A stretch of DNA of 64,000 bases from Amoebophrya sp. A120. Its lineage: Eukaryota; Protista; Dinoflagellata. The first letter of the stretch is position 1. The number at the start of each line of letters is the position of its first letter. The notes under the pieces were generated by a model. It had not been told where the DNA came from, searched no databases, and saw only the letters and a list, made by a program, of their open reading frames with translations. The stretch is from the NCBI GenBank assembly GCA_905178155.1, contig CAJINV010000010.1, positions 3,430,587 through 3,494,586 of the forward strand, read 5' to 3'. This document shows positions 4,970-46,026 of this stretch, piece after piece. The position numbers and the translations under genes are program-made.

Positions 4970-5660
4970 AATTTAGCATCTTGGATGCGCGGGATTCATC
5001 ACTATAGTTTTGCGTTTCAGGATGCACTGTGCGGAGAGGAATAGAATAAAACGACTCAAAACTAGACAAAACTTTTTGGCACCATTTTTCGCAGACAACA
5101 GATCCTCTTTCACTTTCCATCAGTTCTTCCTCAGACCGCGATCAGAAAAAGATTGCCTTTGAGGACTGACAACCAATGCATCATTCTCAATACCCATCCT
5201 CTTGCTGCGGGCCGGAGGTCGTGCTTTCGGATTGGCCCACCGTTCCATCGGAGCCCACCACGGGTAAAAAGCTGCTTGAAGTGTATGACGACCTGGTCAA
5301 ACGTTACAATCTCAAACGTTAAAATTAGCATCTTGGATGCGCGGGGTTCATCGCTATAGTTTTTCAGGATGCGTTGCGTCACGCTACAAACTGTGCGGTG
5401 AGGAATAGACTAAAACGACTCAAAACAAGACAAAACAGTATCTGAAACCATTTTCGCCATCAGTTCTTCCTCAGACCGCAATCAAAAAAAGATTGCATTT
5501 GAGGACTGACAACCAATGCATCATTCTCAATACCCATCCTCTTGCTGCGGGCCGGAGCTCGTCCCTTCGGATTGGTCCACCGTTCCATCGGAGCCCACCA
5601 CGGTCAAAAAGCTGCTTGAAGCGTATGACCTGCTCAATCGTTACAATCTCAAACGTTACA
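4970..5660. repeat. Diverged tandem duplication of about 340 bp
   Basis: 4970-5320 resembles 5321-5660; ORFs 5153 and 5493 translate to near-identical peptides. Confidence 0.85.
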
Positions 5661-6610
5661 ATAGAGTCTAAATTTTGTCTCGCACAGCTATAAACAGACT
5701 GCGCGGCTCCTACACCGAAAGGATCTAGATTTTCTCTTGCATGATGAGCATGACAGAATCGCAGAGCGTTCCCGTTCCATCTTCTGCAATACAAATTTCC
5801 CCAGGAGATTCTAGTGCGGATTGGGGCTCCGAAACTTGTCATGCGCAATCCTATGGAACTAGGCTAGACCATGCAGTGCTTGCATCACAGATTTCCATCA
5901 TCTATTGTACCGCTTGAGATTGTAACACCTGAGCGGGTTATAAAGCGGACGCTCTGAGCCGGAGGGGCGAATGCTCCGCTGGTACCGCTGGTACCTCATA
6001 TACGTACTTCTGCATCAGTTGGAGCTGCGCTCTCAATGCCGCGACTTCGGTTTCGCACTCTGCCAGAGCAGCCGACCAGTCGGCCGGCTCCGACGAGTGT
6101 GACAACGGAGACGCGGGCGAGGAAGGAAACGAGCAGCCGTCAGAATGCGACGCCGGGGCCGTCGACGAGGAGGGGGAGTGGTGCGCGTGGCTGTGGTGGC
6201 CGTGGGGGGGGGGGGGGGGGGGGGTGACTCTTGTCGTGGTGGCCGTGGCCGTGGTGGCCGCGGCCGTCGTGCGCGACATGACCGTGTCCAGAAGCAGTCA
6301 GGTGTTTCATGCGTTTTGCATGCTCTTGCTCCGCCTTATTAGCAGCAGCTTCAATTCGCTTCAATCGTTCCGCTTTGTCCTCCGCGCTCAGAATGGTTCT
6401 TGGCGATAATTCGTCCACACTGCTTGCGTATACGGACACAAAACCAGGACGAAGAGCCTTTTTCTCAATCATGGAAACTGCACCAGTTGGAGACCCCCGC
6501 TGCAGCGCTGCATCTTGTTCATTGAGGCCATCACTGCACGGCGTGTCGGTGTGCTCCGAAGTCGCAACTGCGAAGCGCAGCAATGCTGTGATAACCAGAA
6601 GCAAATACAT
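5527..6610 (-). CDS. Putative secreted His/Pro/Ser-rich protein; frameshift at the poly-G run near 6204-6224
   Basis: Signal-like MYLLLVITALLRFAVA. ORFs 6140-6628 and 5938-6279 overlap at the G-run. Removing element 5624-5942 gives RASA|SSSFLT...QQEDGY-stop. Confidence 0.65.
5624..5942. mobile_element. Introner family C
   Basis: TIR TAT..CTCAA..GTTACAATCTCAA; direct repeat AAGCG. Confidence 0.9.
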
Positions 6611-9093: not shown

Positions 9094-9385
9094 CCAACCG
9101 CCGCCTAAAAAAGAAGAACGAAACAAAATTTTGAGAAAGGATTCTGTCTTTGGATAGCACTTGCTCCCACCAGCAGCTCGGTAAGAAGTACTACGGGTCA
9201 CCACTTGTCGTTTTGCTTTCCTCTTGCAGCAGCTGCTGTGGAGTATCTATCGTAGTGTTTCTATTTTCATCTTCCAGGTGGTATTTCTCTTGATTTTTGA
9301 CCTACGGGTGACGAAAAATTTCGGCGACGTTACATTACGTTTCTTTACGTATTTTCCATTTATATCCGACTCTCGTGAAGACCAC

Positions 9386-12300
9386 TTACGCGCCGCCATG
9401 GTAGCCGCACTTCTCGTCCATCTTCTGTTTCTCCGCGGTTTCCAGAGCATGCTCCCCAGCCCGCGTGGTTGGGATCGACGGAGTGTTTTGGTGACCGGCG
9501 CCGCCTAAGAGGCCAGACGCACCTGAGATGATTGAACAAGCGGAGAATGCGCGTTTAGGGATTATTGCATGCAATGCCTACTGCGACTGCATACTTACAA
9601 CGGATACAACAACTACTTTGGATCTTGCACGCGCTTAGTTCTCGAACAAGCTTACCGCCGTTGGCCGCACCCATGAATTCCTGATCAAAAGCGCCGGCAT
9701 TAAAAAAACTGTCGTAGCCCGCATCCATCTGGTAACCCATGCCAGCACCCGGAGCATCTGATTTGTGGTGGTCATTTGTCGTGCGGGAAACACATCAAAA
9801 CGATAAACTTGTATTGCTTTTTTGTTTCGCTAGATGTCCTACAAAAGATAAAACTTGTCATGCAGTTGCTTCCATGCTAGTGCAGTTTGCTCATGCGTCG
9901 AAACCTAAATACAGTAAAAAGAAGTACTCAAAGCGTTCGCCATTCCCGCGGAGTAGGAGTTCTGGTAGTTCTTCCAGGACTGTATCAAACAAAAAAAAAT
10001 TTCACGATCACTCATCGACAATCTTGCAATACAAACAGCCTCTGCCATGCATGAAGATGCATCACAATCAAATCTGATACGGGATTTCTCTGGTGCTTTT
10101 GCAATACTACAAGAAAGGCCTCCAAAATTTCTCGTGCGAAAACTGCAAGTGACGAGTGATGATGACCAACTTTCTTCTGTCCATAGACTGCGAAGCACCG
10201 CTACCACGCTTGGAACTGGTATGAAAGTAAAAAACCTTTTTGCTTGTTGTGTTGTACAGAACAACTGCATCACAGGTAGAGGCAGTCAGTTCTTAGTCTA
10301 CTAATCTAGGCTATTCTTGCATCACAAGTTGCGTTGTACGTGTTCTCTCACGTAGACTATAAGCCACGCATCACAGCCCCCGCCGAACTCTGTCATGCTG
10401 ATCCGACACTACAAGCTTTCTACTTCGATTTCCGATCATACCCCGACGCGTTCGACCACTTGTTCCACTCGGCCCACTCCTCGTGACCATACCCAGCACC
10501 GTAGTTCTGATGGTTTTTTTGCATCGCAGGTTTCCTTCGTTTTGGTGAAAACAGCATGACAGAGTTTTGACACTTTTTCTTCGTTCGGGTAAGGACCATA
10601 CGCACTTGTGCTGCTGCATGACGACCTTTCTTGAAGCCAAGAACATGCTGATCATTCTATATCACAAACACAATACTATACCCTCGCAGCAGCGGCCGTC
10701 GCGGCGGAATGGTGGGCGTGCGCCGCCGCCGCGCCCATGTGGGCCGCATATCAAAAGGAAAAATCCTCCCTCCCTAGATCAAAACGGAAATTTGTGATGC
10801 AGGTTTGTGGTCACAAATCATCTTTGTCTTGCATATAAGATCATAGGAGCCATTTAACGCGTTCATGAGCAAGTCTGTCATGCGCTTTCGACTACTGCAA
10901 ACCTGTTTGCCATGCGCAATTGCTAGCCTTCTGCATACTCAAACAGGCTCAGAAAATGCCGCCAAGCACTTTCTGCACGACAAATCTGATTTGTGTACGC
11001 AAATTCAGCATCAGAGACTTCGTTGCGATATGGGGAGGGGGGATTTTTCCTTTCAATACCGCAGCCAGGTTCGCCGTGGGGTTTGCGTTGGCAAATTCGT
11101 CGTTGACCCCAAACCCGTATGGATTGCAAATACGTCTGGGTCTGGAAACTTGTGATGCAAGTCGGTCAATAACAAATGCACTGTAATGCGCCGCCAAGCA
11201 TGACAAGTTGTCTCGTGCTTCTGTGCTGCGTTTTCCGCATGAGAAACTGCGTTTTTGCATGACAGGCGAGAGAGGCTGTTTCGATGGCCCCAAGCAATAC
11301 AGATTTAAGGGCCATTCCAGATCAGCATGACAAATCTCGCAATCTTCCAGACCCAGACATATTTGCACTCCATAACCCGCCGTGATTCCCGGCGCCAGAC
11401 CCGGCGCCAAACGCAGCAGCTCCGAGGGAGTTGACGCCAGCAGATCCCTGTAACCCGCCCGCGGCAGCAGCACCCATGTTCGCCGCGGCGGCAAACTGCG
11501 CAGCGGACAGCTGCGAGGCCGCGTGGTTGGGGACTACGCCCGTGGAGCTGCCATATCCTGAGTAAAAACGTACCCACACCAGAGTCAGGATGGGGATTTT
11601 GCAACAAAAACCTAGGAGGTTTGTGAGTCACGCATGACAAGTTGCACTCTGCAGTGTAGTGCAGGTTAGCAACTGCAGCCGCATCACAAATCCATTTGCT
11701 CATCCTGTTCACAGCATCACAAATTCCAAAACACGACTGGCAATGGCTCTCATGGGGATGCGCGTTACAAGTCTTCCTGTCTTTGCAAATCTGCATTACA
11801 ACTCTGGTGTGGGTACGTTTTTACTCAGGATATGCCACCGTGCATGTTCAAAGCGTTGCCAAACGGGTTCGCGGTGTTGACCCCCGGTAAGTTGCCAAAC
11901 GGGTTCCCGTATGAAATGCAAAAGCAACGTACTAGTATGAATTGCATCACAAATTTCCCCAGCATGAAAAATAAAATTTGTAATGGGGATTTAACTTGAG
12001 AAAGAAATTTTTGAATGCATAAAAGCAATCACTACGAGTACGATACTTTTGCAATGCATATCCCGGTGTTCACCCCCGTCGCAGCACCGCTGGTCTGCGC
12101 CAACATGTTCATCATCGCGTCCAGCTGGGTCTGCTGCGCCTGCAGGTGCTGGCTAATCGCCGCGGAATTCTGCTGTCCCTGCATCTGCTGTTGCTGCTGC
12201 TGCAGAAGCAACTGCTGGTTGTTGTTTCCATTGTTGTTTCCGCCCATGTTGTTCAGGTTGTTCTGGCCGACGTTGTTCTGGCCGTTATTGTTGGCGTTGT

Positions 12301-15300
12301 TCCCGGCACCTCCCATGTTGTTCGCGTTGTTGACGTTCTGTCCATTATTGTGCTGCTGCTGATGGTTGCCGTTGACATTGTGCTGGTTCTGGTTCACGTT
12401 GGGCTGCTGGGTGTTGTTTCCGTTGTTCCCACCAGCAGTGTATCAAATGCAAAAGTGTCTGGGTCTGGAAGATTGGTAGGTTTGTCATGCAGGTTTTCCA
12501 TGACCCACGCGGTCTGCCATGCACGGCCTAGCATGGCAGGCTCTGTGAGATCTCTATCATGCCGTTCCTGCATGAGAAACTGCCTCTAAACTTGTTCAAA
12601 AGTGGACCTCTTTATTTCGTAATCATGCAACACACATTTTTCCACGATCCAGATGTAGCATGACAAGTTGCACTCTTCCAGACCCAGACATTTTTGCAAT
12701 TCATACAGTGTTCAGCCCGTTGTTTCCGCCCTGCTGCTGGTCCAAGTGCCGCACGGAGTTTCCGTTGTTGGCCCCCGAAACAGATCCTGTGCAAAAGCAT
12801 CGTACTCTTTAACTAATCGCAATCATGCAAGACAAATCTTCTTCCCAAGCGAAAGCAGCATGGTGAATTGCATCTGTCATGCTAAGGTCATTTGCCTTGC
12901 GTTTTCTACTAGTACGGTGCTTTTCCGCATGATAAAGTAGACCCATGCTGGCCCAGGGCCGCAGCCATGGCAGCGTTACTAGACGCGTGCTGACTCGACA
13001 GGTGGTGGTAGTTCGCGGCGGCCAACTATTACAGTGAAAAGTGCCCCCCACCCCTAAATTGCAAAAATTTGTGATGCGAAGTTTCCAAATGAAAACTTTT
13101 TGTCATGCATGAAAGGAGTATGAATCTTTCTGATGCAGAATGTAGGCGTGTATCGCATCGCTTGCATGACAAGTGCCGCTCTTGCTGGGGTCTTTTGCAA
13201 TACAAATTTTTGCTATTCACGATTGAAAACCCGTGATGCTGATACATGCAAGAGGGCGAATGTTTCATTTGGAAAGGTTTGCAATACAAATGCTCCCAAG
13301 TTCGGGGGTGGGGGCATTTTTCATCGTAATACCAACTGCCCGGCGTTCAGAGCCGCGGCGTTCGCGTTCAGAGCAGCTGCGTTGCGTTATAACAGTGCAC
13401 AACTCCCCCTCCCGCCCCTCATTTGTATTGCATGAACAGCAACACAAGCAACAGCAGAAAAGGGGCTTTCGCATGACAAAACTGCATGCGGATTCTAGTA
13501 CTATTTGACGTTCCAAAATTTGTCATGCTATCAGTTCCCACCATGCAAGGTGCGAATTTGGTATTTTGCATTACAAATGAGGGGGAGGGGGAGTTGTGCA
13601 CTCTCATATGCGTCCGTCCAGCGCCGCCGCGCCCGGGTTTCCCGCCATCATAGCCGCACAGCCGATCGCGGTGGCCTGCGTATCCTGTGCAAAAGTATCG
13701 CACTCGTAGTCATTGCATTTCTGCATTACAAACCTCTTTCTCAGGGTGAATCAGCATTAGAAATTAAATTTGTATATGCTAATTATTTCTAATGCACTTT
13801 ATACGTAGTACGATGCTTTTCCAATGCATACTGCGCATCGCGGAGCAGCTGGTTGATCTGCGATTCGGGCAGGGCGTTGCGCTGCTTCAAGATACAGGCC
13901 ACGTTCATCGGGTCGCCCTGCTGCGCGCAGGCCTTCATCAGGCAGGAGTAAACCGCGCGGGTGGGCAGACACTTCCAGACGAACGGCATTTGGCGGAAAA
14001 CCAAGTCGATGGCATCGTACAAGCGGTTCACCCCCGCGTACAGGCGCACCAGGATGGAAAAAGTGACGCAGGACGGAGCAATGTTGCACCGCTGCATGTC
14101 CGCGAAAACCATCAGACCTGATTTTTATAATAATGTGTAGTGAAACAGTGCTGTCAGACTTTGATTTCCTTTCACGCATCACAAGCCATTAAGTATTCTT
14201 TCTGCGTTCATCGGAACATATCATGCATGTTGACAGGTCGTTGTAGATAAACACAACAAGCTGAAAAAAAACACGACCCGTACCAGTATCAAAGTCTCCA
14301 ATCTTGGCGCAGCCATCCAACAGAGAGTTGAACATGATCTCATCGTATGGATTGCAAAAGTGTCTGGGTCTGGAAATTTGTGATGCTGGGTGGCGTATCA
14401 TGAGAAGACCACAAGTGCTGGCCCAGCATGACAAGTTTTTGAGCTTCTAGGTGTTGCCTATTCTGCATGACAAACTGCGTTTCTGCATGGCAGAAAAAGG
14501 CGGCTCTTGGGTAACCTGCATGACAGATTTAAGAGTCATGCCAGACAAGCATGACAAACATGCATTCTTCCAGACCCACACATTTTTGCATTTGATACAT
14601 CGACTGGCAAGCGGCGCATCCGGGCCTCGTTGGCGACAAGCAGGGCCTTGCGGAGGTTGCCTTCGTTGCAGAATCCCTTGACCAGGGTGGAGAAGGTGAT
14701 GATGTCCGGCATAATACCTTTATTCGATATAGTATTTTTGCTTCTATCTACGATGCGGATGCGGGACTACGCAAGACAAAAGTTGCTCAGCATGCATGCT
14801 GGATTGTCATGAATCAGAAGTGGAACAAGTAAGTAAGTAAGTAACTTAACTTTTTGATTTCATAATCCAAATCTTTGTGATGCAAAAGCCTGCATAACTA
14901 GACAACATCAGCATCATGGGTCTGTCATGATTTTCACATTACCACTCGCCTGCATCTCCTGTAGGACCATGGCGGCGACCTTCATGTTGTTGCACCGCAC
15001 AGCGACATCAATCAGGGAGTTGTAGGTCACAACGTTGCACGGCACCCGCTCCGACAGCATTTCCTATGGAAAGGAGAAGTCCCCCCGCCCCATAATGAAG
15101 CGGCACGTTTCTCAAAATTTGTGATGCTGATTTGTGGCCACAAATCCTGTCTCTCTTGCATGAGGGCAACCTCAGAGACTCCGCCACGATATGCAGGCGG
15201 TTTGCAATGCTGGAAGGCCTATAGGCTAGACCTCTAGCAAGCTAGGCCCCTACAACAAGAGGCCCCCCCTTAGGATTGCGATCTGCGTGCAGTCCTTTAC

Positions 15301-18300
15301 TGCAAGACAAATCTGATTTGTGTACTCAAATACAGCACCACAGATTTCCGTTTTGTCATGGGGAGGGGGGATTTTTCTTCTTGATATTTCCCGGTACAGC
15401 TTCATGGCACGGGCGAGGTCCTTGATCTTGGCGAAACCTGACAGAGTATGTCAACAGGTAGCTTTGCAACACAAATTTTTTCCAAAATTCTGTTTCGATG
15501 CTACGGCTCCGCATGATTGAAATTGTGATGCATGAAGACCGCTACAATCGTAAGTTATATATCAGTACCTTTGATGATGGTCGTGTACAGAACCGTGTTC
15601 TTGTGCAGGTTGGAGGACTTCATGTCTTCAAAAGTTTGGACGGCCATCTCCACGTGGTTGCACTTCACGCAGGCATCCAGCATGCAGCCGTAGGTGACCG
15701 CGTTCGGGTATCCCACAGAAAAAAGCAGGCAGGGCAGATTTGTAATGCAAAAATAAATACACAGAAAAATCTGTCATGGGCGGCCCCATAGCATGCTGTT
15801 TAGGATATGCTATGCAGACTTTTTTGTGTATTTGTTTTTGCATTACAAATGTGACCTGCCGGCTTTTTTCTGTGTGATATCGGGGGAATATCGGTCTTGC
15901 GCATCTCCTCCCACAACAGCAGAACTGAAAATTTGTATTGCAGAATCCGGATTTGAAAGAGTGGTCTCTGTTGCAGCTGGTGAAAGTGGAACAGCAACAG
16001 CATTTGATACTGAATAAACGGAACCAACGATCCTGGATGCTATTATTTGCAGAAGTTGAAAGCAATTTGTGACGCTGCAATGCAATTATGCAATGCAATA
16101 TCAAAACAACTCCTCTACCGCGATTGAAGTCCCGGAAGGTTCCGTAGGCCTTGATCAGGGTACCGTACGTGACCGCCCCCGGCCGGGCCGAGTACATGTG
16201 CCCACGCAGGTCCACCATCGTTTGTTCCATCGACTGGACGTCCCGGAGTATCAAATGCAAATATGTCTGAGTCTGGAAGAGTGTACTCAAACTTGTCATG
16301 CTGGTTTTCCATGATCCATGAGGTCTGGAATGCGGTACCTAGCATGAAAGACTCTGTGAGGTCTGTATCCTGCCTTTACTGCATGAGAAACTCCGTCCCA
16401 ACTTGGTCGAAAGTGGCCTGCTTTTGGCACTCATGCTCATGCAACACAGACTTCTGCATGATTCAGATTTAGCATGACAAGTTGCCACCTTCCAGACCCA
16501 GACGTATTTGCAGTTGATACGGAGGCGCGCGAAACCATCCAGGCACGTGTTGTACAGACCTTCTTCCGCGTCCTTGGACTTCCGGATATGCAATACAAAT
16601 CTCCCGTACATGTACAAGATGCATCACAAATTTCACCAATTTGGAGCGTGAAACTTATCATGCTAAACTAGGATCGAAGCCAAGTTTTGTCATGCAGAGA
16701 CCGCATTTGCACGTCGTGTACGGGAAATTTACTGTGGATACCGCAGGAATTTTTTCAACAGCGAAAACCCCCGGCGCAGTTTCGCGGTGCGGCTGTCGCC
16801 ATCGAGGGAGATTTTCACGAGCGCGGAGACGGACTGGTAGTCGATCTGGTAGTCGGAGGTCAGCATCTTGTCCACCCACGACCAGGCTTCGTCGACCTTC
16901 TTCCAGCGGATGGCGTGGTCCAGGTACTTTTGGTACCGCATGGCGTTCTCGTCCTGGACAACCGCGGGAGCTGCAGTGGCGGTGGTGTTCTGCTGTTGCT
17001 GCACGTTGGCCGGTTGCGCAGCCGGCTCCTCCTGCAGCTTGGTCTCGGAGGCAACTACATTTTCCACAGTTTGGTCCACCAGAGTCGGTTCCCCAGTATC
17101 AAATGCAAATGTGTTTGGGTTCTTTGGAAGAGTTGTGCCAATTAATTGTCACGCTTGGCCGACGATAAAAGAAAAGTCTGTCATGCTTGTTGCGCGGCTA
17201 CAACGTCACTTCGATTTGTCATGCAAAAAGACAATTTTTCATGCGATTAAGAACGCTACACATTGTAGCCGCTCAGATGAAAGAACTTGTCATGCGCGGC
17301 TCCGCAATACGGTCTGCCGTGTATCATTGGGACATTAGCATGACAACCTTCCAGAGGACCCAGACATATTGGATGCGGTGGATACCCCGCATCAAATGTA
17401 AAAATGTCTGGGTCTGGAAGAACGCGCGATTTGTCATGCAGCTTTTCCACGATCCATGAGGTCTGGAATGCAGGACGTAGCATGACAGATGCTGCGCGAT
17501 CTTTCTCATGCCTCTCCTGCATGAGAAACTGCCTCGCGACTTGGTCAAAACTGGACGACTTTTGGTAATCATGCAACACAGACTTTTGCATGCTTCAGAT
17601 TTAGCATGACAAGTTGCATTCTTCCAGACCCAGACATTTTTACATTTGATACCCCGTCGCCGTCAGCAAATCCGCCGCGCCGGAGTTCAGCAGGGCCGCA
17701 TTCGGATATGCTGTGCAAAAGTATCATAGTAATCTTCGCAGTCACGCATTACAAATCTCCTTCTTGAGGCGAACCCGCATCACAAGTTCCGGTTCTCATG
17801 CTGATAAAATTTGTCATGCGATTTACACTACAACGAGACAACTTTATTTGCAGCGCATATCGGACTGGTCATCACGATCTCGTTTTCTTTGTCACCGATA
17901 TGGGACTCTCAAACGTTACATTCTCAACTGTTACATGATTTGCCATGCAAATTTACCACCAAGATCGCCACGATTAAGCTGCTTCGCATAACAAATCTAC
18001 GAAGGGCTAAACAGCATCTAAATCTGTGCCAAATCTGTAATGCAAAAGGCGCAATCTTGCTCCTTTCACTTTTGCCGTTCTTGCATTACAAATTCGTGTA
18101 ACCGTTGAGAATGTAACATTAGAGAACGCCATAACCGACCGCGCCGGCTTCCATTCCCGACAGCATCTGCAGTTTCTTATGATATGCATTGCAAAAGTAT
18201 CGCACTCGTAGTAATTGCAGTCATGCATTACAAATCTCTTTCGTTAGGTAAATCCGCATTACAAATTTTATTTCTCATGCTGAGAAAATTTGTAATGCAT

Positions 18301-19659
18301 TTATACGAGTACGATACTTTTGCACAGGATATATGAGGGTGCACAACTCTCGCCCCTCCCTGTTCATGCTGTATGGCATGAACAGCAATACAAACACCAG
18401 CACACTTAGACCCTGTGCATGACAAATAACTCGAACCCCAAATGTTAAAAATTTGGAGTACTCAAGTACTGTTTGGGCAGCTTCAGAGCAATTTCTCATG
18501 CAAACAGTGCCACAAAGCAGCAACGAGATTGTGAACTTTGCATCACAATAAACACAAATCAGGGGGAGGGGGACGACTTGTGCACTCTCATATTTCTCAT
18601 TCTCGCAGCAGTCGTCCTCATTCGCATTCGCGATGTTTTTGTGGTCGGTGTCGGTGTCCGGGGTGGTGTGGGCCAGAGATTCGGTGGTTTCGGCCGACGC
18701 AGCAGAGCAGTATCAACTGTAAAAATGTCTGGGTCTGGAAGAATCCAACTTGTCATGCTGATTTTGAATTCTCAAAAAATCTGTATTGCATGAGCAGCAA
18801 AGAGAGTCCAAGTTTTGCTACACGGAAAGAGCATGTGTCAAGCGGTATAGGCATCAGGAAGCCGTCACAAAATCTGTGATGCTAGGGCATGCATCACAGA
18901 CATCAGGAGTCATGCAAAATGTGCATGACATACCTGGCAATCTTCCAGACCCAAACATTTTTACATTTGATAAGCAGGTTTGCTTCTCGATGAACTGGTT
19001 GCATTTCGTGATCGTGCCCGGCTTATGCATGGCAAAAGCATCGTACTAGTAGCAATGGCATCACAAATTTGCTGCTCAGCATGAGACGCCGAACTTGTCA
19101 TGCTGATTTAGCTCGAGAAGCAGATTTGTCATGCATGTACGACTAGGATAGTTTTGCACAGGATAGTGGTTTTTGGTCGGGGTGGTCGGGTGCAGATCCT
19201 GGTCTTGCTGCTCCATTTGCTCCACCTGCTTCTATCGCAAGAAAAAACTGTTTCACTGTGAACTTGTGATGCAGAAAATGCATCTGAGAAGTGTTTGTGT
19301 TGCTACACATGCAAGACAATGGATTTCTGGCTGTGTTTTCCCTCAGGAATCTCGCATGGCAAATTTCCTCTGTGATGTAGAGCAAACCTGTGATGCAAAA
19401 CCTGCAAAATCCTTACAGTGAAACATTTTTTTCTTACGATAGCTTCGCTACCTGGTGTATTAATTCTTGGAGTTCAGTTCCTAAGGAAGAAAGCAAATTC
19501 AGTTCCGCAAACTCTCTAGTCCCGTGGGAGAAGTGAGAGTGACAACCTCTAATGCATAATGACGCATGAGTAGAAACAAGAATTTGATACCGCAGTCTCC
19601 TCCACAGGCAGGGCGGCCACCGAGACGGCGGCCTCTTCCGGGACACCAGTTGCAGTCAT
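9386..19659 (-). CDS. Pentatricopeptide-repeat (PPR) protein with N/Q/G/A-rich C-terminal tail, about 31 introns
   Basis: Reconstructed PPR motifs PGAVTYGTLIKAYG, PNAVTYGCMLDACVK, TVLYTTIIKGFAK, NVVTYNSLIDVAVR, PDIITFSTLVKGFC, DEIMFNSLLDGCAK, PSCVTFSILVRLYA, PTRAVYSCLMKACAQ. About 22 TIR-type introns plus 9 GT-AG introns (9523-9655, 9758-9927, 10216-10441, 10507-10681, 14118-14283, 14718-14942, 15438-15568, 15925-16118, 19452-19590). Confidence 0.9.
9983..10185. mobile_element. Decayed introner
   Basis: TAT..ATA ends, weak TIR, direct repeat GACTG. Confidence 0.75.
10749..11058. mobile_element. Introner family I
   Basis: TIR TAT..AAAGGAAAAATCC..CCTCCC; direct repeat CCGCA. Confidence 0.9.
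11118..11374. mobile_element. Introner family A
   Basis: TIR with GTCTGGGTCTGGAA; direct repeat ACCCG. Confidence 0.92.
11554..11832. mobile_element. Introner family K
   Basis: Perfect TIR TATCCTGAGTAAAAACGTACCCACACCAGAGT; direct repeat TGCCA. Confidence 0.95.
11910..12060. mobile_element. Introner family B
   Basis: TIR; direct repeat TCCCG. Confidence 0.9.
12441..12705. mobile_element. Introner family A
   Basis: TIR; direct repeat CAGTG. Confidence 0.92.
12783..12934. mobile_element. Introner family B, eroded
   Basis: Left end GAT instead of TAT; flanks AAACA/AAGTA; frame restored (GST|SGANNG). Confidence 0.8.
13027..13331. mobile_element. Introner family J
   Basis: TIR TATTAC..TGAAAA.TGCCCCC; direct repeat CCAAC. 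Confidence 0.9.
13388..13608. mobile_element. Introner family F
   Basis: TIR GTGCACAACTCCCCCTCCC; direct repeat TGCGT. Confidence 0.93.
13681..13830. mobile_element. Introner family B
   Basis: TIR; direct repeat CTGCG. Confidence 0.92.
14346..14597. mobile_element. Introner family A (252-bp subfamily)
   Basis: Close copy of 2637-2888; direct repeat CATCG; splits PPR motif LPVD|EIMFNS. Confidence 0.94.
15065..15386. mobile_element. Introner family I
   Basis: TIR; direct repeat TTTCC. Confidence 0.9.
15709..15879. mobile_element. Introner family H (long hairpin)
   Basis: TIR of about 60 bp starting TATC.CACAGAAAAAAGC; direct repeat TCGGG. Confidence 0.93.
16249..16519. mobile_element. Introner family A
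   Basis: TIR; direct repeat CGGAG. Confidence 0.92.
16587..16740. mobile_element. Introner family G
   Basis: TIR core AAAT.TCCCGTACA; flanks CCGGA/CCGCA. Confidence 0.85.
17097..17651. mobile_element. Two family A introners in tandem at one target site (17097-17384 and 17390-17651)
   Basis: Three target copies CCCAG / CCCCG / CCCCG; the elements are separated by only 5 bp. Confidence 0.88.
17707..17859. mobile_element. Introner family B
   Basis: Direct repeat TCGGA. Confidence 0.87.
17899..18133. mobile_element. Introner family C-like
   Basis: TIR core GTTACATTCTCAAC.GTTACA; direct repeat ACCGA. Confidence 0.9.
18178..18592. mobile_element. Family F introner with a family B introner (18183-18331) nested in its terminus
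   Basis: Outer direct repeat TTTCT; inner direct repeat TATGA. Confidence 0.9.
18711..18972. mobile_element. Introner family A
   Basis: TIR; direct repeat AGCAG. Confidence 0.92.
19024..19165. mobile_element. Introner family B, direct repeat lost
   Basis: TIR present; flanks CGGCT/GTGGT; frame restored by removing element plus 5 nt. Confidence 0.8.
19233..19441. mobile_element. Introner family E
   Basis: Homologous to 757-974; direct repeat GCTTC. Confidence 0.92.
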
Positions 19660-19972
19660 CTTGCTCTTATGCAAAATAAAAACTTCCGGGTCATCGGGAT
19701 CATTCGTGACGCGAGTGATTTGAAGGACAGCGACAGCGCGATCTGTGATGCATACACGCGATCTGTGATGCATTACAAGGAAAAATCATTCGCGTTCCTT
19801 CTCCAAGAGAACCAGCACCCAGATTGATATTTTCATTTCCATACGTTATGGTCTGGTCTCCGATCTGCGATGTGTGCCTCTTAGCCGTTTTTGGTCAAGA
19901 GAATTCCCGTCCGTGCTGGTCTGTAGCTTGTCCAATTTCCTTCCAGAATCGGACTACACCACGCTCTTCCTC

Positions 19973-20186
19973 TATCCCACGAAAAAAGTGTTACAGTTAC
20001 ACATTTGTTGTCAATTCAGCAATACAAATTTTCTCTGCATGAGAGGGAGAACTTGTAATGCAGAAATCCTACGGGAAAACACCTAAGAAACGAGGCTTCT
20101 ATGCGTATCCGGCATGACAGAGCTCGTCTGTCTTGCTTGGCCTGCAATATTACAATGTGTAACTGTAACACTTTTTTCTTGCGATA
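19973..20186. mobile_element. Introner family D, probably in the PPR gene 5' UTR
   Basis: TIR core GAAAAAAGTGTTACAGTTACAC; direct repeat TCCTC. Confidence 0.88.
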
Positions 20187-22255
20187 TCCTCTGAAAAACA
20201 GAAGAAGAATCCTTCTCAGGAGAGAGGTATGGAAGTCGAAAAACTTTATTTCGGAGTGTCATGGAAGTTTGTCATGCAGACTGATCTTATCAGCGTAACT
20301 GCTCATGCAGTCTTCGCCTTGCAGGAGTGGATCCTCGGATGCGTGTATGCATTATGTTTTGCTTCATCTTGACATAATGATAATTCTGCATGACAAACAG
20401 TTACCTCCGAAAATAAATAGTGTTGCATTCTGGATAAGACAAGTCTGCTACTCTCTCTCTCGTTTCGTCCTTCTCTGTAATATCGTGCATTTAGCAAATT
20501 GGTTTTTTGATAATAAATAGCTGTTTCTCATGCATAGACGCAATGGGAGGGGGGTAAAATTGTCATGCATCGTCCAATACCTCCTCGTGCGATTGTTCTT
20601 GTAGAGTAATTAAGATAACTTTTTAGTCGAAGACAAAACAGGAGTAAAGTGTAAGCCAGTGGCTTTTCAAAGTGAATATTGTCATTATGTTTATTTTCAT
20701 TGTGTGCGAGTGCCGTAAATAGTGGGGGCACAACATGTTTTTTTTTGCTTGTTTGTCGTCAGATACTTTTTACTTCTACTTGATACAAACTGGATAAGTA
20801 CTTATTCATAGGCGTCGCTTAAGTACGTCTCGGAAATGCAAAAATGGTGAATGAAAATTGATCTTGTTCTCTTTAGGTTTGATAATATCAGCAGGCTGTC
20901 ACAAAAATCCTGTAGCAGTTCTGATGTTGAGTCTGTGCTTCGATATCTATGGGTATGGGGTATCGCACTTATGGTACCAAGTGTTAAGTGCAAAGCCAAA
21001 GGTAACTTGAAAATGTGACTACGGTCGTGAGAGGTCGTTCTTGCACTTGCAGGCTAATAGGATATGTGTAATCGTGTGGTCAGAAGTTTTTTATTAAGAC
21101 GGTGGTGGTGGTGCAGCTAAAGTAATGCACTATGTTTGGACCGTTCTTGTGCTAGGTTTTCACTTTTCGCTCTCTCTCGACAGGATAGTGTTCTACACAG
21201 GTTGAAGTTGATGCTGTGATGGCGCAATACCACACACCATGATTTTATTGTTGCGAGGGAGCTGCAACTACACAGTGAAATCAAACAAACACACAGGGAA
21301 CATCCGCGAAAAGAAACAACAAACGCGATAGGTTCTCCGTGGCGCAAGAACCTGAAGGTCCTCTGATGTCGGCCCTTGCTTGCTCGACAATGAGCGGGCG
21401 GACGTCCTCGCATGGGCGTCGTGAATAGTAAGTACGCCATGCAAAATCTTCATGCTGATAGACAGCAGCATGTGCAGTTGGCCCAGAGAGTGGTAGACCT
21501 ACTTGTGAAACAACGAAACCTCACAATGCGCCAGCGGCGTGGCAGACACAGGAACATGTCCAGAGACGAAAAAGAACAAACAGCACGGGGCTCGGTGGTC
21601 CGGTTCTTGTCATGGGTGTTTTGATATTTGAATTTGTGTGACTTTTGATGAATGTTTCTGAGGGCATGGTAGAAAATGGTCTTCTACTTGATGCATTTCA
21701 TTTTCATCCCACTTATTTCTATACGTGATTTTTCTACAGATGAGTTCTTGCGAATCACGTACGAGGTGCTTTGATTTATTTGATCTCTTTGACACTGTCA
21801 AAATCAAAAGGGAGAGAGTACTGTCCGTTGCGTAGCACTTACACGGTTTCCCGTCGGAACGGAAGTGTAATTCTGTTTCTTGCGGAACACTTCGCGGAAA
21901 GGATTCACGTGGCACCACGTAGGCCGGGTCTCTTCAGACGAAACACACGACCCGCGGGCTGCATGGTGAATTATCAACATGGAACAAAATACGTCCTCGA
22001 CCCATGTTGAATTATGTTGACGGATTTTCATCAATGTCGAGATAATTCGTCGCTGAAACTACATCATCGCTTGCCTGTGGCTGTGTCTGTGTGTCGCTAT
22101 ATGTTTCGCTAATTGTACTCACGTCATGAAAACGAGTTATTCCCGGTTGAGGTGCAAGAAGAAGTACGAGTCTATGCATCGTGACCCATCTTCATCTCGT
22201 CTTCACGCCTTCGGCACAAGATCAAAGAACTGAAACTAAACTAATTCCATGCTAC

Positions 22256-25042
22256 TTACTGCCTCTCCCCGGCAAATACAACTTTGAACGGGTGTGGCTG
22301 CGATAGGATATCGTAGAGCCGCCTGTTCACTTTAAACGTGTCTTTTCCTTTCTTCGTTTCCTCGTTCTTATGTCCTGCTTGTTGTCCACCGATGAAGATG
22401 ACTTTTTTTGCCAAAACATCTTCACTGTGGTCTGGTGTCGCTTCTGCGCCTGCCTTTATTTTTTCCCCAGTGAAAGTGATTTCACTTCGAGCATCCTCGA
22501 TCGGAGAAGAACTCTTTTCATCAACCTCGGCGGCAACAAAGGTGGGCGAAAGCTTCCTTCTGGAGCTTACAGAACCAGCATCACACTCGTCCTCCGGAAC
22601 AGCGGTTTGATCTGCTTGCGTTTCCTTTTTCTCGTCCCAAAACTCCTTCTTTTTCCGAAATAAGCAGCAGAAAAAGGCACCCGTATTGCTGTAATGCGGC
22701 ATCAGGCGGGCGCATTTTCGGAGCTCCTTTTTGATCCAGCGGTGGTCTTCTACTTCGTTATTTTTACCTTCATGATCTACTCCTGCGATGCTTTTAGAAG
22801 TTGTACTTACCGGCCACATCGTCTCTCGGTACTTCTTATCAAATGCAAAAATGTCTGGGTCTGGAAGATTAGAACCTGTCATGCTAAATCTCAATGATGC
22901 AAAAATCTGTGTTGCGTAAGTAGCAAAAGCTGTCCGCTTTTGACCAAGTCGAGAGGGAGTTTCTCATGCAGGAAATGCATGATAGAGACCTCAAAGAATC
23001 TGTCATGCTGGGTCTCGCATTCCAGACCTCATGGGTCATGGAAAACCTGCATCACAAATCTTGGACTCTTCCAGACCCAGACATTTTTGCATTTGATACT
23101 TCTTTCTGTCCTCCTTCCCGAGCAGCTTCTGGGACTCCTGGTAAGAGGAAAGGACCGTGTAGGAGGTGGGGGCGTCTACTGTTGAGCTTCTGCCATTTGA
23201 TGTTCCATTTGCATTTGCCTTTTTTGGTTTTCCACCTCCGTCTGCTGGCAGAATTATTTTCTCTCTTTCCGCGACAACCGTCCAATCTTCCAGACCTCTG
23301 TGCATACGACAGGGTGCGACAATGCCGGATTTCGCACTGTCGTGCACGTCGACGACCTCTACACACCCTTTCGGTATTTTCCGCAGCACTGCCTGCACTA
23401 CGGCCTCGTTTTCTAGCGGATTCAGCGAGCACGTGGAGTAACAGAGAAGACCAGTAGTATCACTCGCCAGCAACTTCAACCCCCTGAGTAAAATCTGCAC
23501 CTGGAGCGAGTGTAATTGCTGTCCGAGAAAAGGGTTCCAGGATCTCCATTTCTCCTCGTATTTCCGCATGGTCCCGTCCCCGCTACAGGGCACATCTGCA
23601 ATGATCCGATCGAATTTCAACAAACTCGTTTTCCCAAAAAATTCGGGGAAAATCTGCGCTCGGTGGTTCGTTACAACCACATTCTTCGCGCCGAATTGCA
23701 CCCGCTTCGCCAGGGTGCCCGCCCGCTTCTGGTCAAACTCGTTGGCGAAGAGGAAGCCTGAGTTAGTCTTTTGAGGACCATGACGTTGCTGACCAGTAGT
23801 CGGGCAAGAAACCAATGAATCAGGAGTCGCTGATGTTGTAGTTGTACTAACATCCAAGATCCGTTCCAACGCCTGGCTGGTTTTCGACCCCGGGCTGGCG
23901 CAGAGGTCCAGCACCCGGTGCGATTTCTGGACGTTCAACAAAAACACCGGGAACATCGAGACGATCTCCTGGCGCTCGAGAACCTTATTTCTGTGCTTCT
24001 CCACCAACCACTTTTGGATCTCGGGGAAAAACTTCTGCATCGTCTTCGCATCGTAACACATCTGGAACGCGACGAGCTGCTTAGTTGGCACTGTAGCTGT
24101 TATTGCCTTTGCCGCCGCGGCGTCAGATGTTGAACCTTTAGAAGTTCTGGGAGCTGCTGTATTAGGTTGATGTTTACCTCGATGTACTAGTTCTCGTCGT
24201 CGCTCTTCCAACCCGAAGCGGAACTTCACCGGTTTTGGCACCGTGCGTCCGGTCGCTGTAATGTACGATGGTTCGAGAAAGTGTTTCTTGACCTCCAGCA
24301 ACGCCTTGCCCACCTCGGCTTTCTTCGATTCCAAAGACGAAAACCGGAAGGAAACGCAGATCGGCTGGTGGAGAAATTTGAAAAATTTCTGCCACTCCGT
24401 CCCGTCGTGGGCGAAGAGTTTCTGGTGCAAATGGTAGTACTCCGTGAAATTTTTGCCGATTTTTTCCTTTTCCAATTGGATCTCCCAATACTTTTCGTCC
24501 GTGAGGTAGGTTTCTTGGTCTTGATCAGCTGCACATCCAAATCCTTCGTAGGTGCTCTTTGCATCACGACAAGCTGCTGAAGCAGCTGTAGGCTTTGATA
24601 TTTTCGACACCACATACGCTTTCTCTTTTCCGCGGATGCTAACCCTGCCGTTGCGGCCGCCCGCTTTTCTTCTTGTTTTCCGGCGTGGACGATGTTGATG
24701 GACTTGAAGAACCGTACTGTTCTTACTAGCACTCCTCGTCGCAGCAGCCACTTGCGCGGTACCAGTTCCAGTACCGGTTGAACTTATAGCATTCGACTTC
24801 GTGGCGGCACTTTCATTTGGCCTCGTCCCGACTGTCTTGCTACACGACGGCTTCTTTCGACCATTTTCGCCCGAAAAGGATGAACAATCCTCGGTAGTTG
24901 TAACAAGCTTCCGCCGCTTGGCTGCCGGAAGAACTTCTACACTGGAATCCATAGTTCCAGTTCGTAGAGCTTGTTCAATATCCGGAGTGAAGTCCTCCGA
25001 TGCTGTCTTTTTCAATTCCGTTTCGCTCCCAGCACCTGCCAT
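22256..25042 (-). CDS. NSUN2: RsmB/NOL1/NOP2/Sun-family RNA m5C methyltransferase, NSUN2/Trm4-like; 3' end uncertain
   Basis: Motifs RQEIVSMFP, VLDLCASPGSKT, FDRIIADVPCSGDGT, YSTCSLNPLENEAVV, RLMPHYSNTGAFF. One introner. A possible GTAAGT donor near 22259 could extend the gene. Confidence 0.88.
22837..23098. mobile_element. Introner family A
   Basis: TIR; direct repeat CTTCT. Confidence 0.93.
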
Positions 25043-26174
25043 CTTTTGTGTTTCTAAGTATATTGGTAGTTGTCCGACTCAATTCATTGCTTCAAAAACA
25101 TTAAAAAGGCGCGATGAGCATACTAAAAACTCTTTCTATAAGTTCAACAGCTGATAGCCATGCCCAACAAACCATCTGACTGCACGTGTACCTCGGACAA
25201 GAACTCTGAGTCATTGATTGATCCAATGGCAACAAAAATCGTCAACCAGTAATGAGATCATGATGGAACAGATTCACTTTTTATTCCAGTGCTGGCAAGA
25301 AGTTATGCCTGTTGATCCTGATCGAAAATAGATCCTGGGGCATGATAGATTCTAATTCTTCGCTCCTTCCCCATACAATTCCTTTTCCGAGGAACACCAT
25401 GACAAATAAATCCCCCTTCTGGGCGACATCGATCGCTGATCAATGCAGCATTTTTTTTTTCCAGCAACACCTGATCCAACCGGCCGATCGCACGAACGAC
25501 TAGAGCAAGGCAGCTGGTGGTGTTCTTAGAAGATTTCGTAGAACAAGATGACCAAGGAACAAGACGTGATGATCAATTATCCACCGTCAAGAAGTTTCAA
25601 ATCGTTTAATATTTTCCCTACACTTCTACAGCGTCGAGTCGATACCTTTTTACACTTTTCGGCAATTTGAACAAAATAAGAACCTCGGATTTTGAATTTT
25701 TCTCTTCCAATATTTTGTGGTTTTAATTTTGAAGATGAACCAAACTGAAGGTATCAAAAACTACTTTACATATTAATCTTTTCTCGTTGTGCATGCTTCC
25801 GGTAAAAATTGCTTTCAACATTATTGAAGACTCACATCCCTACTACTTAATTCAAACGGAAAAAGACGCTTCTCCATACTCAGGCTGGTGCCGTCAACGA
25901 AGTCGAAGTCTCGGGAGGTCGTGTTGGCAATAAAGCAGGTTCGGAGGGGGCAACATCAACTTCGGCTGACGACAAACTTCTATTTTCATCTGCCGGCGAG
26001 GAGGTGGATGCTAGGTGTTGTATCGAGGCTTCGTCTGGACGTCCAGAGGGCAAAGTTGTAGGTGCGAGGAGCTCCTGCTGATGATGATGTTCATCTTGTG
26101 CGGCCTGCTGTTGTAGTTGTCGTGTTCTTATTTCTTCCTCCTCCAGCGTTGCTCCGTCCTTTGCGACGTCCGCA

Positions 26175-44500: not shown

Positions 44501-46026
44501 CAAAAGCGCATCACAGATTGGCTGTGGAATGCGCCAAGCGGCTCCCATTTGCCCCATATGCAAGACAGACCTGATTTGTGGTCACAAATCAGCATCACAA
44601 ATTTCCTTCTCGGTATGGGGAAGAGGGATTTTTCCTCACAATACTTGTTGACAAAAACCCGCACGTCATTTGCGTAATCCTTGACGTAAGATTTTGCGGA
44701 TTCCAGATACTGCGTATCCGGTAGAAGTTTGTGGATGAATTTGGTGTAGACGTGCGACTCTGGGATGCTATCAACTGTAAAAATGTCTGGGTCTGGAAGA
44801 TTCTGACACTTGGTTGGTTGGTTGGGTAGCGCCTGTCGCCGGTGCAGGTCCCATCCTCCATCGATTGCGATCCGGAGTAGCCGGAACACGAGGCCCTAGT
44901 GGCACAACTTGTCACGCACGTTTTGCATGAGCCACGATGTCTGTGATGCATACCCTAGCAATACAGATTTTTTGAGGGCTTCTTGATGCCTATTCCGCAT
45001 GACAAATGCCTTCTCAGCGTAGCAAAACTTGGGTTCTCTTTGCTGCTCATGCAATACAGACTTTTTTAGAATCCAAAATCAGCATGACAAGTTGGATTCT
45101 TGCAGACCCAGACATTTTTACGGTTGATAGATGCCATCGTGGTCGTAATCCGCCTCCAACACCCCGTCGCGATCCACATCGGACGTGTGGTGCTCGCGCA
45201 AGTGCTCGACTTCCTCGCTACTCGGATTCCCGCCCAGTAAGGACACAAGCTCCATGTCCTGTTGCGTACTTGTACCGTCGTTGTCTGCCATCATATTGCC
45301 ACCCACCTCCACATCGTCACTCAGCGCGCGACGGTATTCCGATTCCGTTCTGGGAACCTTCAAACCTGATGCGCTAGGAAAACTTCTACCATGCTCTTGT
45401 TTTTGTCCTGCTGTCGTGAGCGAATTGTCTGTAGCATAATTTGCGCCGACCTGGTCTGTTGCAGCCTGGTTGTGCCTACTGTTTGAAGATGAGTCAACTG
45501 CATCCTCGCTTGGTGCTCCTGCCGCCGCTGCACCATGTGAAGATCCTCCTCTTTGGTCCGTTGTCCCACTGCTTGGAGCGGCTGCATCCTCTTGCAACCG
45601 CCTTGGCAGTGCACCTGCGTCCCGACCGGCTCCGGATGTTGAAGTACTACTTCTAAATCCCGCATCTTCGACACCAGCAGCTTGCCGCACCAGATTTCTT
45701 TCCTCTTCAGCGGCCCGGAGCTGTGGCGGTGGTGCGTCGCCTGAGGCGCTGGCGCTGCTACTGGGAAGATTAAGATTATGTTTGTCTTCCGACACCAGCG
45801 CCTGGGCCGCTGCTCCTGGTTCATTATCCGCATCGGAAATTCCCCCGGCCTGTCGGTCCGCGGTGCAAGAGTAAAAATGAGAAAAATGCCCATGAAACTG
45901 CAGTCCGGCGGTTGCGAGAGCCACCACCCGTTGCCGTCGCCTGCTTGAGGAGGCAGATGTCGGTAGTAGGGACGTCGGCTTGCAGCTCCTTTGTGATCTC
46001 CGCATTTTTTCCTCACCCATTTTCAT
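38536..46026 (-). CDS. Transmembrane 9 superfamily (TM9SF/EMP70 nonaspanin) protein, 15 TIR introns plus several GT-AG introns
   Basis: Motifs YYDFPLVC, LGQILQGDR, VHWFGILN, GWKLLHADVFRPP, GGLPFLSMYAELHYIFDSVW, AENYKWWWRSF and C-terminal IYARIKSD. Confidence 0.92.
38884..39100. mobile_element. Introner family F, inverted relative to 13388-13608
   Basis: Left end TGT; direct repeat TGGCC. Confidence 0.9.
39711..39882. mobile_element. Introner family H
   Basis: Homologous to 15709-15879; direct repeat ACTTG. Confidence 0.92.
39944..40154. mobile_element. Introner family D-like
   Basis: Direct repeat AAACG. Confidence 0.87.
40318..40467. mobile_element. Introner family B
   Basis: Direct repeat GCTTC; splits GWK|LLHADVFRPP. 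Confidence 0.93.
40507..40774. mobile_element. Introner family A
   Basis: Direct repeat GTTGT. Confidence 0.9.
40824..41107. mobile_element. Introner family A
   Basis: Flanks TGGCC/TAGCC; right end GTA. Confidence 0.85.
41155..41396. mobile_element. Introner family A
   Basis: Direct repeat TGTAC. Confidence 0.92.
41718..41999. mobile_element. Introner family K
   Basis: Direct repeat GTTGT; inverted homolog of 52950-53229. Confidence 0.9.
42095..42244. mobile_element. Introner family B
   Basis: Direct repeat CTTCA. Confidence 0.92.
42290..42454. mobile_element. Introner family B-like
   Basis: Flanks CCATC/CCCTC. Confidence 0.83.
42485..42737. mobile_element. Introner family C
   Basis: Homologous to 5624-5942; flanks AGAAG/TGAAG. 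Confidence 0.9.
43006..43269. mobile_element. Introner family A
   Basis: Direct repeat GGCGT. Confidence 0.92.
43353..43554. mobile_element. Introner family E
   Basis: Direct repeat TTATT; inverted homolog of 757-974. Confidence 0.88.
44328..44643. mobile_element. Introner family I
   Basis: Flanks TTTGT/CTTGT. Confidence 0.87.
44769..45129. mobile_element. Introner family A carrying a 94-bp insert
   Basis: Direct repeat GATGC. Confidence 0.9.

Follow-up and report, generated by a model that had tools for sequence, protein, structure and literature searches.

Introner elements of the dinoflagellate Amoebophrya sp. A120 have been described by Farhat 2021 (PMC7789003). In the available text of that paper, their inverted repeats start with TAT, seven nucleotides and AAA, they carry direct repeats of 3-5 nt and form hairpins, and inverted and direct repeats are also reported for 15% of the canonical introns of A120. 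The splice sites of these introners are described as variable and their borders as unknown, and Table S4 gives nine predominant non-canonical classes, all with NT donors. Nearly all spliceosomal proteins were found, together with U2, U4, U5 and U6, and U1 was not detected. The same text states neither a single splice register nor a conversion path, and it reports no second splicing machinery. In the tables of Gozashti 2025, the A120 families have mixed donor classes and target site duplications (TSDs) of 2-5 nt.

Similar introns are found in other lineages. In Polarella and Symbiodinium (Roy et al., bioRxiv 2020.10.14.339549), introners are elements with terminal inverted repeats (TIRs) whose splice sites lie across the boundary between TSD and element, as in A120; class 12 uses the last G of the 5-nt TSD plus the first element base, and suboptimal donors convert with age from GA to GC. 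These introns still depend on GT, GC or GA together with AG and reach these signals by a shift of frame, whereas in the elements of A120 the register stays the same and any base is accepted. Fritillaria borealis has, according to the review PMC11282704, MITE-derived non-canonical introns with TIRs and TSDs that are removed by an adapted U2 spliceosome, with a preference for AG-AC or AG-AT ends and an exonic TAC target, whereas the ends in A120 are near-random. The nonconventional introns of euglenids (Nomura 2025, PMC12501133; Milanowski 2016, PMC4770533) belong to an unrelated lineage, but share with A120 ends that are independent of GT and AG, a terminal stem set at constant distance from the cut, TSD-like repeats, a proposed MITE origin, intermediates and a suggested type conversion. 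Their paired motif is CAG/CTG at +4/-6, in contrast to TAT/ATA at +2/-5 in A120. In Euglena, the spacers measure 3 nt before and 5-6 nt after the paired motif, the donor being strict and the acceptor looser (PMC12501133). Euglenid introns are reported as circles and not lariats in the review PMC11282704.

Introner Elements and Host Genes

The window analysed here is a stretch of 64,000 nt from contig CAJINV010000010.1 (assembly GCA_905178155.1), in which exon translations are 100% identical to A120 proteins. All genes and introns given below lie on the minus strand. Most junctions read in RNA are in a PPR-protein gene (9106-21046, A120 protein P0001). The other two genes are an EMP70/TM9SF gene model (38536-46026, P0003), with 19 introns, and the 3' part of a gene for a 1919-aa protein without a Pfam match (59626-64000, P0010), with 11 introns within the window.

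A curated set of 70 exon-interrupting elements was obtained, 49 of which have a perfect 5-nt direct repeat at the exon/intron borders, within the published range of 3-5 nt; with such numbers, the pattern is not due to chance. The end profile of 45 perfect elements reads TAT, seven less conserved bases and a run of A, in agreement with the text of PMC7789003, and transcript-type contigs skip the elements. As in MITEs and other non-autonomous TIR DNA transposons, the elements have TIRs and locus-specific TSDs, are multicopy and non-coding, and occur in both orientations. Nested insertions are present, each bearing its own 5-nt repeats. A search of the three ORFs of a 5.9-kb element gave no Pfam match. 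Judged by their sequence, the TAT…ATA elements with 5-nt repeats are the introners of Farhat 2021 (PMC7789003), the organism and the elements being identical. The elements themselves were thus already known, and the splice rule discussed below was not found in the published literature. The initial annotation of this DNA had missed the identity with the published introners.

A Common Splice Register

The initial annotation proposed a fixed register, -1/+4, with one cut lying a single base ahead of the terminal TAT and the other four bases past the terminal ATA, which gives NT donors. This proposal held: all 16 informative junctions are compatible with it, eight from RNA (among the joints listed) and eight from annotated protein. 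None of the other registers fits all 16: register -2 fits 14, register 0 nine, register -3 seven, and registers -4 and -5 two each. Register 0 is ruled out by seven junctions and -3 by nine, and -2/+3 by two junctions only, the two that are exactly fixed. Under a uniform random register, such agreement would have a probability of 7e-6 for all 16 junctions, 9e-4 for the eight RNA junctions and 0.015 for the six non-GT-AG RNA junctions.

The RNA joints were read from 15 of 76 and 15 of 50 rows, the latter mostly repeat joints of X5, and from the ends of contig pieces. The contigs of X1, X3 and X4 are only presumed to be RNA, none of the records being registered as such; they come from one study and at most two samples, and minority isoforms are hidden in them. 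Raw reads (X9, X10) match almost exclusively repeats, and the coverage of the genes comes from contigs. The count leaves out 44328, 63055, 40824 and 17097, where the annotated protein fits several registers alike, 56311 and 30778, which have no data, and 19452, an exception given separately below. The A120 protein annotation and the RNA contigs are in conflict at two junctions, 13028-13608 and about 11870-12061. DNA polymorphism with empty sites was rejected as the origin of the joins: a single contig lacks 15 introns in succession, and X5, which is possibly the assembly's own source, is continuous and without differences over 18944-19258 and 19404-19997.

Both exactly fixed junctions come from transcript-type contigs. 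The first is a GT-AG intron (19664-19844) from a decayed element (19668-19843), reading G-TATGG…ATA-AGAG on the transcribed strand. The X3 pieces 19588-19663 and 19845-19967 are adjacent at record positions 329/330, and the X4 piece begins at 19845. The first in-frame Met follows it, which puts the intron in the 5' UTR, a position missed by the initial annotation. The second is a CT-CC intron of 147 nt (19020-19166, element 19024-19165) with no canonical base at either end. Its joint, 19019|19167, has a slide of 0, is present in X1, X3 and X4 and absent from X5, and the register is also unique from P0001.

The remaining RNA junctions are compatible with the same register. A GT-AG intron from a decayed TAT…ATA element (10216-10441, element 10220-10440) has its joint at 10215|10442 in X1 and X4, with a slide of one base. 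A TT-TT intron (12779-12935) has a joint with a slide of 2 and allows registers 0 to -2. At a GT-CC intron (27839-28109), which is placed by record arithmetic and an X1 piece that begins at 28110, register 0 is excluded because the RNA keeps the downstream fifth base. A TT-GG intron (28283-28560), placed by an X1 piece end at 28281 plus length arithmetic, excludes registers -3 to -5. A TT-TC intron in the 5' UTR (20224-20437) lies between X3 pieces 20222|20437 with a slide of 3; it was removed as element plus 5 nt although no frame has to be preserved there.

Junctions derived from annotated protein include an AT-TC intron in P0003 (42481-42738), which excludes register 0, and, in P0010, an AT-AG intron (63687-63950) and a TT-GC intron of 288 nt whose repeat is largely lost (61066-61353), both allowing registers 0 to -2. 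The removal of element plus 5 nt despite loss of the repeat, claimed earlier for the elements at 19024 and 61070, was confirmed from RNA and annotated protein, respectively.

Among the joints listed, element plus 5 nt was removed in 16 of the 17 element introns for which RNA gave both ends. A possible exception to the register is a GT-AG intron (19452-19590; RNA joint 19232|GC|19588) with TAT at +2, whose AG lies six bases past the nearest ATA; it ends at +6 from this ATA, or at +4 when counted from a decayed ACA. Next to it is an in-frame microexon of 9 nt (19443-19451), placed between two element-derived introns with its borders taken from the -1/+4 reading; two letters stand between the pieces in X1, X3 and X4, and the frame is open.

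These junctions show that the element and exactly one 5-nt repeat are removed, and that GT or AG is not needed for this. The asymmetry of the cut follows the transcript and not the element, as observed in one pair: the elements at 12779 and 19024 belong to one family of about 150 bp but lie in opposite orientation (score 103 opposite vs 44 same). For a family of about 260 bp, the orientation comparison gave no clear assignment.

With BLAT, junctions of ambiguous placement are shifted towards GT-AG or CT-AC. Because the A120 annotation used BLAT, the NT donors of Table S4 were not taken as independent support for the rule. The published family tables contain GC and GA donors in fam12 (21 and 23 of 331). 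A strict NT rule does not allow for these, except where they result from misplaced junctions within ambiguous repeats.

Terminal Dinucleotides and Hairpins

In the -1/+4 register, the 70 elements have four donor classes and 16 acceptor classes; GT-AG is found in three and neither signal in 38. The GT…AG termini of U2-type introns are not a feature of these elements, as the CT-CC intron fixed by RNA also shows. The fifth base is G in 16 of the 49 perfect repeats, similar to the other positions (14-18), and GT-AG occurs in one of the 49. The insertion sites would therefore appear not to be filtered for G or AG.

In the three genes, whose introns were placed from RNA or protein, each of the 48 non-GT-AG introns is a TAT…ATA element, in a few cases with one terminal base decayed. 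A strong hairpin, with a fold z of -2.5 or lower, was observed in 46 of these 48 and in 3 of 16 GT-AG introns (p 8e-8), a contrast that is confounded by age. The terminal stem sits at a fixed distance from both cuts, which works like the euglenid feature without implying membership: the euglenid signature N3-CDG … CH'G-N5-6 is absent, and A120 introns pair TAT at +2 with ATA at -7 to -5. All 15 GT-AG introns checked have GTA at the donor, which the N-TAT of the elements mimics. Neither a lariat nor a branch point was observed. The first A of ATA was considered by eye as a branch point and dropped, as T is found two bases upstream in only about 42% of the ends.

Possible Conversion towards GT-AG Introns

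The initial annotation also claimed that ageing elements become ordinary GT-AG introns. The examples on which this was based read as described. The introns 10216-10441 (G-TATGA…ATA-CCAG) and 19664-19844 are GT-AG in the -1/+4 register and are skipped by RNA-type contigs, and in each of them neither canonical signal is shared with the exonic copy of the repeat. In 10216-10441, with repeats CGGGG/CCAGT and a fold z of about -2, GT and AG would be changes of the intronic copies, provided that the exonic copy represents the ancestral state. The element at 63691 bears AG at +3/+4. Where the repeats differ at the fifth base, the upstream copy is indeed G at 27843, 44328 and 63055 and A at 42485; the latter was given as the exception, and a second case, the element at 19024 with C upstream and G retained, had been missed. 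The elements at 19024 and 61070 seem to have shifted away from canonical.

The repeat mutations lean in the claimed direction, with 10 towards GT/AG, two away and eight neutral. This excess has a p of 0.003 against a neutral gain share of 40% and of 0.05 without the two flagship introns (10216 and 19664), being borderline over the range obtained without them (0.05-0.31). The trend with age that had been predicted did not reach significance in the window: G at -1 is found in 10/21 mismatched and 16/49 perfect repeats (Fisher p 0.18), AG in 4/21 and 5/49 (p 0.26) and GT-AG in 2/21 and 1/49 (p 0.21), and the Spearman test gave p 0.21. These statistics leave out 19458 and 60714, which were picked as GT-AG, and the nested elements 18183 and 30879, which lie inside introns.

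Possible traces of elements are present in ordinary introns. ATA at -7 to -5 is found in 3/15 GT-AG introns, all three with TAT donors (p 0.001 and 0.02). One GT-AG intron in P0010 (60710-60969), a candidate late intermediate, combines TAT at +2 with ATA at -7 to -5 and has no recognisable TIR. In 11 GT-AG introns lacking TIRs, a motif from inside the elements was counted 20 times, compared with 1.9 times in shuffles.

It is possible, but unlikely, that the register is fixed and no conversion path exists, the GT-AG element introns being born canonical (a few per cent) or produced by neutral hits, and the TIR-less GT-AG introns being unrelated old introns with acquired element fragments. The intron 62130-62452, with a perfect repeat and GT-AG ends from the outset, would fit this explanation, as would the non-significant age tests, the borderline gain excess without the flagship introns and a BLAST search with the GT-AG introns, to which the window gave short motif matches only. 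It is opposed by the canonical signals of 10216 and 19664, by the upstream G in 6/9 fifth-base mismatches, compared with six intronic and eight exonic G at control positions 1-2, and by the presence of the motif in 11/15 GT-AG introns and its rarity outside introns. That ageing elements turn into GT-AG introns is plausible on sequence grounds, and some hairpin introns have likely decayed into ordinary ones.

Possible Splicing Mechanisms

All readable junctions of the transposon-derived introns fit -1/+4, and on balance it seems probable that they are cut by the relaxed spliceosome of A120 itself, with the hairpin and the N-TA start replacing GT/AG. A non-autonomous TIR DNA transposon would insert with a 5-nt target duplication at a site unfiltered for G or AG, and the TIR stem would bring the element ends together. 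The +2T/+3A of N-TAT would take the role that GTA has at the donors of ordinary introns in this genome, the lineage being one for which no U1 was detected, and the distance from the stem would set the acceptor. Changes in the intronic repeat copies that give rise to G at +1 or to AG may then be favoured, after which the hairpin would be free to decay.

It is rather unlikely that the register, although real, is made by separate structure-guided machinery, non-spliceosomal or a second spliceosome, like that proposed for the nonconventional introns of Euglena, with GT-AG introns as a parallel class and intermediates that switch pathway. The acceptance of any dinucleotide at both ends, the hairpin kept in 46/48 introns and the lack of a detected U1 (available text of PMC7789003) would agree with such machinery, and so would the fixed spacers of Euglena with their strict donor and looser acceptor (PMC12501133), which could accommodate the +6 case. 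However, the TA of the elements falls exactly on +2/+3 of the GTA donor (15/15), the repeat mutations lean to GT/AG, and the available text of PMC7789003 reports no second system. A register that wobbles between -1/+4 and its neighbours, mostly -2/+3 and sometimes a nearby AG, would be invisible in mRNA because a perfect repeat yields the same product, and is consistent with the 14/16 junctions that also fit -2/+3, the +6 end of 19452-19590, the sites called variable in PMC7789003 and the mixed donors and TSD lengths of Gozashti 2025, but it is improbable, given -1/+4 in both fully readable junctions, the exclusion of register 0 by seven junctions and of -3 by nine, and published variability that can come from junction placement inside perfect repeats (49/70).

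Conclusions

A120 is a standard case of introns that lack a splice code, with more than 60% being non-canonical. With a single register, dozens of apparent dinucleotide classes become one rule in which neither GT nor AG is needed. The register tells where the end of a lariat or circle would be and gives a correct way to re-annotate the A120 genome. More tentatively, the tens of thousands of "variable" A120 introns could share one code, N-TA…ATA-NNNN, supplied by the transposon hairpin and read by a U1-less spliceosome that ignores terminal dinucleotides. Insertions would then be harmless at birth, the full life cycle from transposon through hairpin-dependent intron to GT-AG intron would be present, and many canonical introns would be old elements. 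The maturation of a transposon into an ordinary spliceosomal intron can be tested directly with the public genome and RNA-seq data.

Introner elements and their host genes

Elements in the window were detected by scanning for TAT…ATA inverted repeats (TIRs) with 5-nt direct repeats, together with an end profile, followed by curation, which resulted in 70 exon-interrupting elements, 49 of them with perfect repeats. In the accessible part of Farhat et al. 2021 (PMC7789003), A120 introner ends are described as TAT, 7 variable bases and an A run. The window elements agree with this description and are therefore already known: they are A120 introners, and the feature is real.

All genes examined in the window are located on the minus strand, resembling the unidirectional clusters described for Amoebophrya. 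Exon translations match A120 proteins at 100% identity, namely P0001 (a PPR protein) and P0003 (EMP70/TM9SF; Pfam), and a third annotated protein, P0010, was also matched to window exons. In P0003 (45130-46026), about 300 low-complexity N-terminal residues precede the EMP70 domain, and its length is 1062 aa versus 536-624 aa in relatives; it is possibly a fused gene model. Long exons contain what we take, by eye, to be an RNA m5C-methyltransferase-like ORF (23036-25078) and kinase-like ORFs (53081-58012). Downstream of element 5624-5942, a block of about 300 bp with a partial element end is duplicated (5020-5620).

A probable fixed splice register

The initial annotation proposed a fixed -1/+4 register, with cuts 1 nt before the terminal TAT and 4 nt after the terminal ATA on the transcribed strand. 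Only mismatched repeats are informative, because a perfect repeat yields identical mRNA in all six registers. Among 23 mismatched cases, 16 are informative, 6 are synonymous or have no data, and 1 is an exception (19452-19590). The -1/+4 register is compatible with all 16 informative junctions, 8 read from RNA-type contigs (a single study, in which minor isoforms are hidden) and 8 from annotated proteins (annotation and RNA disagree at two junctions). Register 0 is compatible with 9/16, -2 with 14/16, -3 with 7/16, and -4 and -5 with 2/16 each; -2/+3 is ruled out by two introns only. In RNA, the elements starting at 19024 and 19668 allow only -1, 10220 allows -1 or -2, 12783 and 28287 allow 0 to -2, 16587 and 20228 allow 0 to -3, and 27843 excludes 0; the limits at 16587, 27843 and 28287 come from contig piece borders, in one run for the last two. 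The annotated proteins are compatible with -1/+4 at 42290, 42485, 59779, 60245, 60475, 60714, 61070 and 63691.

The most telling example is the CT-CC intron 19020-19166, read without slide in three runs and showing that the register is independent of GT or AG. This intron and 12779-12935 belong to one family of about 150 bp in opposite orientations; the latter rules out the mirror register, so in this one pair the asymmetry goes with the transcript.

An element plus exactly 5 nt is removed in 16/17 element introns with both ends seen in RNA, including two 5' UTR introns, where frame imposes no constraint. The seventeenth, 19452-19590, is GT-AG with its AG six bases past the nearest ATA; a 9-nt in-frame microexon lies at 19443-19451. 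The GT-AG introns first highlighted have the sequence claimed: 10216-10441 is spliced in runs X1 and X4 with a 1-base slide, and 19664-19844 exactly (run X3, record positions 329/330). Also confirmed were the upstream G in repeats differing at the fifth base (27843-28108, 44328-44643 and 63055-63273), the exception at 42485-42737, the AG of 63691-63949, and the element-plus-5 lengths removed at 19024 and 61070.

The P0001 annotation departs from the RNA contigs at 13028-13608, where a 51-nt exon is skipped, and at about 11870-12061, where a repeated stretch is shortened; these may be annotation errors or minor isoforms. In the RNA-derived frame, about 36 further codons precede the annotated P0001 Met.

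The -1/+4 splice rule is well supported in this window; considered on its own, the register is very probable. In the portions available, PMC7789003 gives A120 introner borders as variable or unknown, and PMC12130899 lists mixed donor classes and mechanism calls for A120 families (22/58 A120 rows, supplement file 8). A fixed A120 register was not found in the text or Table S4 rows of PMC7789003 (Figs 3 and S19-S23 could bear on novelty), nor in the available parts of PMC12130899, bioRxiv 2020.10.14.339549, PMC11282704, PMC12501133, PMC4770533, PMC9860276, PMC11453091, 10.1101/2024.09.05.611473 and PMC12621601; PMC13326754 gave no match. The comparison covered no subscription papers, among them Roy 2023 (Curr Biol) and Henriet 2019. 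The elements themselves are known; the rule appears to be unpublished.

Splice signals, hairpins and mechanism

As proposed for NT donors, every element donor reads N-T-A in this register. The 70 donors comprise GT (26), CT (15), AT (15) and TT (14), and the acceptors cover all 16 dinucleotides; 38/70 elements have neither GT nor AG, and 3/70 have both. The fifth base of perfect repeats shows no enrichment of G (16/49 versus 14-18 at other positions). All 15 GT-AG introns checked start with GTA (GTAC 6, GTAT 5, GTAA 3, GTAG 1), indicating that positions +2/+3 of the host donor are provided by the element.

In three genes, 64 introns were delimited via RNA or protein, independently of the TIR search, and all 48 non-GT-AG introns are elements. 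Fold z, rough because 14 shuffles were used per intron, is <= -2.5 in 46/48 of these (median -7.1) and in 3/16 GT-AG introns (median -1.0), a contrast confounded by age, although old unstructured non-canonical introns are almost missing (2/48). With modest confidence, we infer that splicing is most likely performed by a relaxed major spliceosome. The hairpin would bring the intron ends together, N-TA would substitute for GTA in a host where U1 went undetected (Farhat, PMC7789003, accessible part), the acceptor position would be gauged from the stem, and canonical bases would be beneficial yet dispensable. The main rival, a structure-guided, Euglena-like route, is considered rather unlikely.

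Nested and tandem elements

A 5.9-kb element with a perfect 5-nt repeat (30879-36764) is nested in a small element within 30778-36919. It has 158-bp TIRs (95.6%) and mirrored 108/216-bp repeats, plus a tandem array of 14 x 256 bp; three internal ORFs gave no Pfam matches. This arrangement would produce a 6.1-kb intron: predicted -1/+4 splicing leaves a 1098-aa open frame, and the length agrees with the contig. The tandem elements 17390-17651 and 17097-17384 have a common 5-nt repeat and a zero-length exon between them; according to P0001, 560 nt are removed. The pair (17097-17651) is a candidate for recursive splicing. Element 18183-18331 lies within 18178-18592, in the last 5 nt of the host element's TIR (duplication TCATA), and according to P0001 the two are removed together as 420 nt.

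Proposed conversion into GT-AG introns

The proposal that ageing elements become ordinary introns is supported by the two introns at 10216 and 19664 and by the direction of repeat mutations; its age trend is not significant. In both introns, both canonical signals sit in intronic repeat bases differing from the exonic copy. With the exonic copy assumed to be ancestral, gains number 10 at the three positions able to make G…AG, compared with 2 losses and 8 changes that are neutral; this gain excess has p 0.003 when a 40% share of gains is taken as neutral, and p 0.05 without these two introns. G bias is absent at control positions 1-2 (6 vs 8). In the window, neither G at -1 (p 0.18), AG (p 0.26) nor GT-AG (p 0.21) is significantly more frequent in mismatched elements than in perfect ones, and canonical score does not correlate with TIR identity (rho -0.15, p 0.21). 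The elements at 19024 and 61070 shifted away from canonical, and 62130-62452 was GT-AG from birth.

TAT and ATA are in register in 3/15 GT-AG introns; the accessible part of PMC7789003 gives inverted and direct repeats in 15% of A120 canonical introns. The element-internal motif TG[TC][ACG][AT]TGC, defined by eye and counted on both strands, is dense across all element families and most GT-AG introns (per kb: elements 16.5, GT-AG introns 10, exons 0.3, between genes 1.0), with 20 copies in 11 TIR-less GT-AG introns versus 1.9 when shuffled. It could be a transposase-binding repeat, an intronic splicing signal or a mark of inserted fragments, the last two readings counting against conversion. 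Conversion of elements into GT-AG introns is a plausible path in A120, and one that is probably real.
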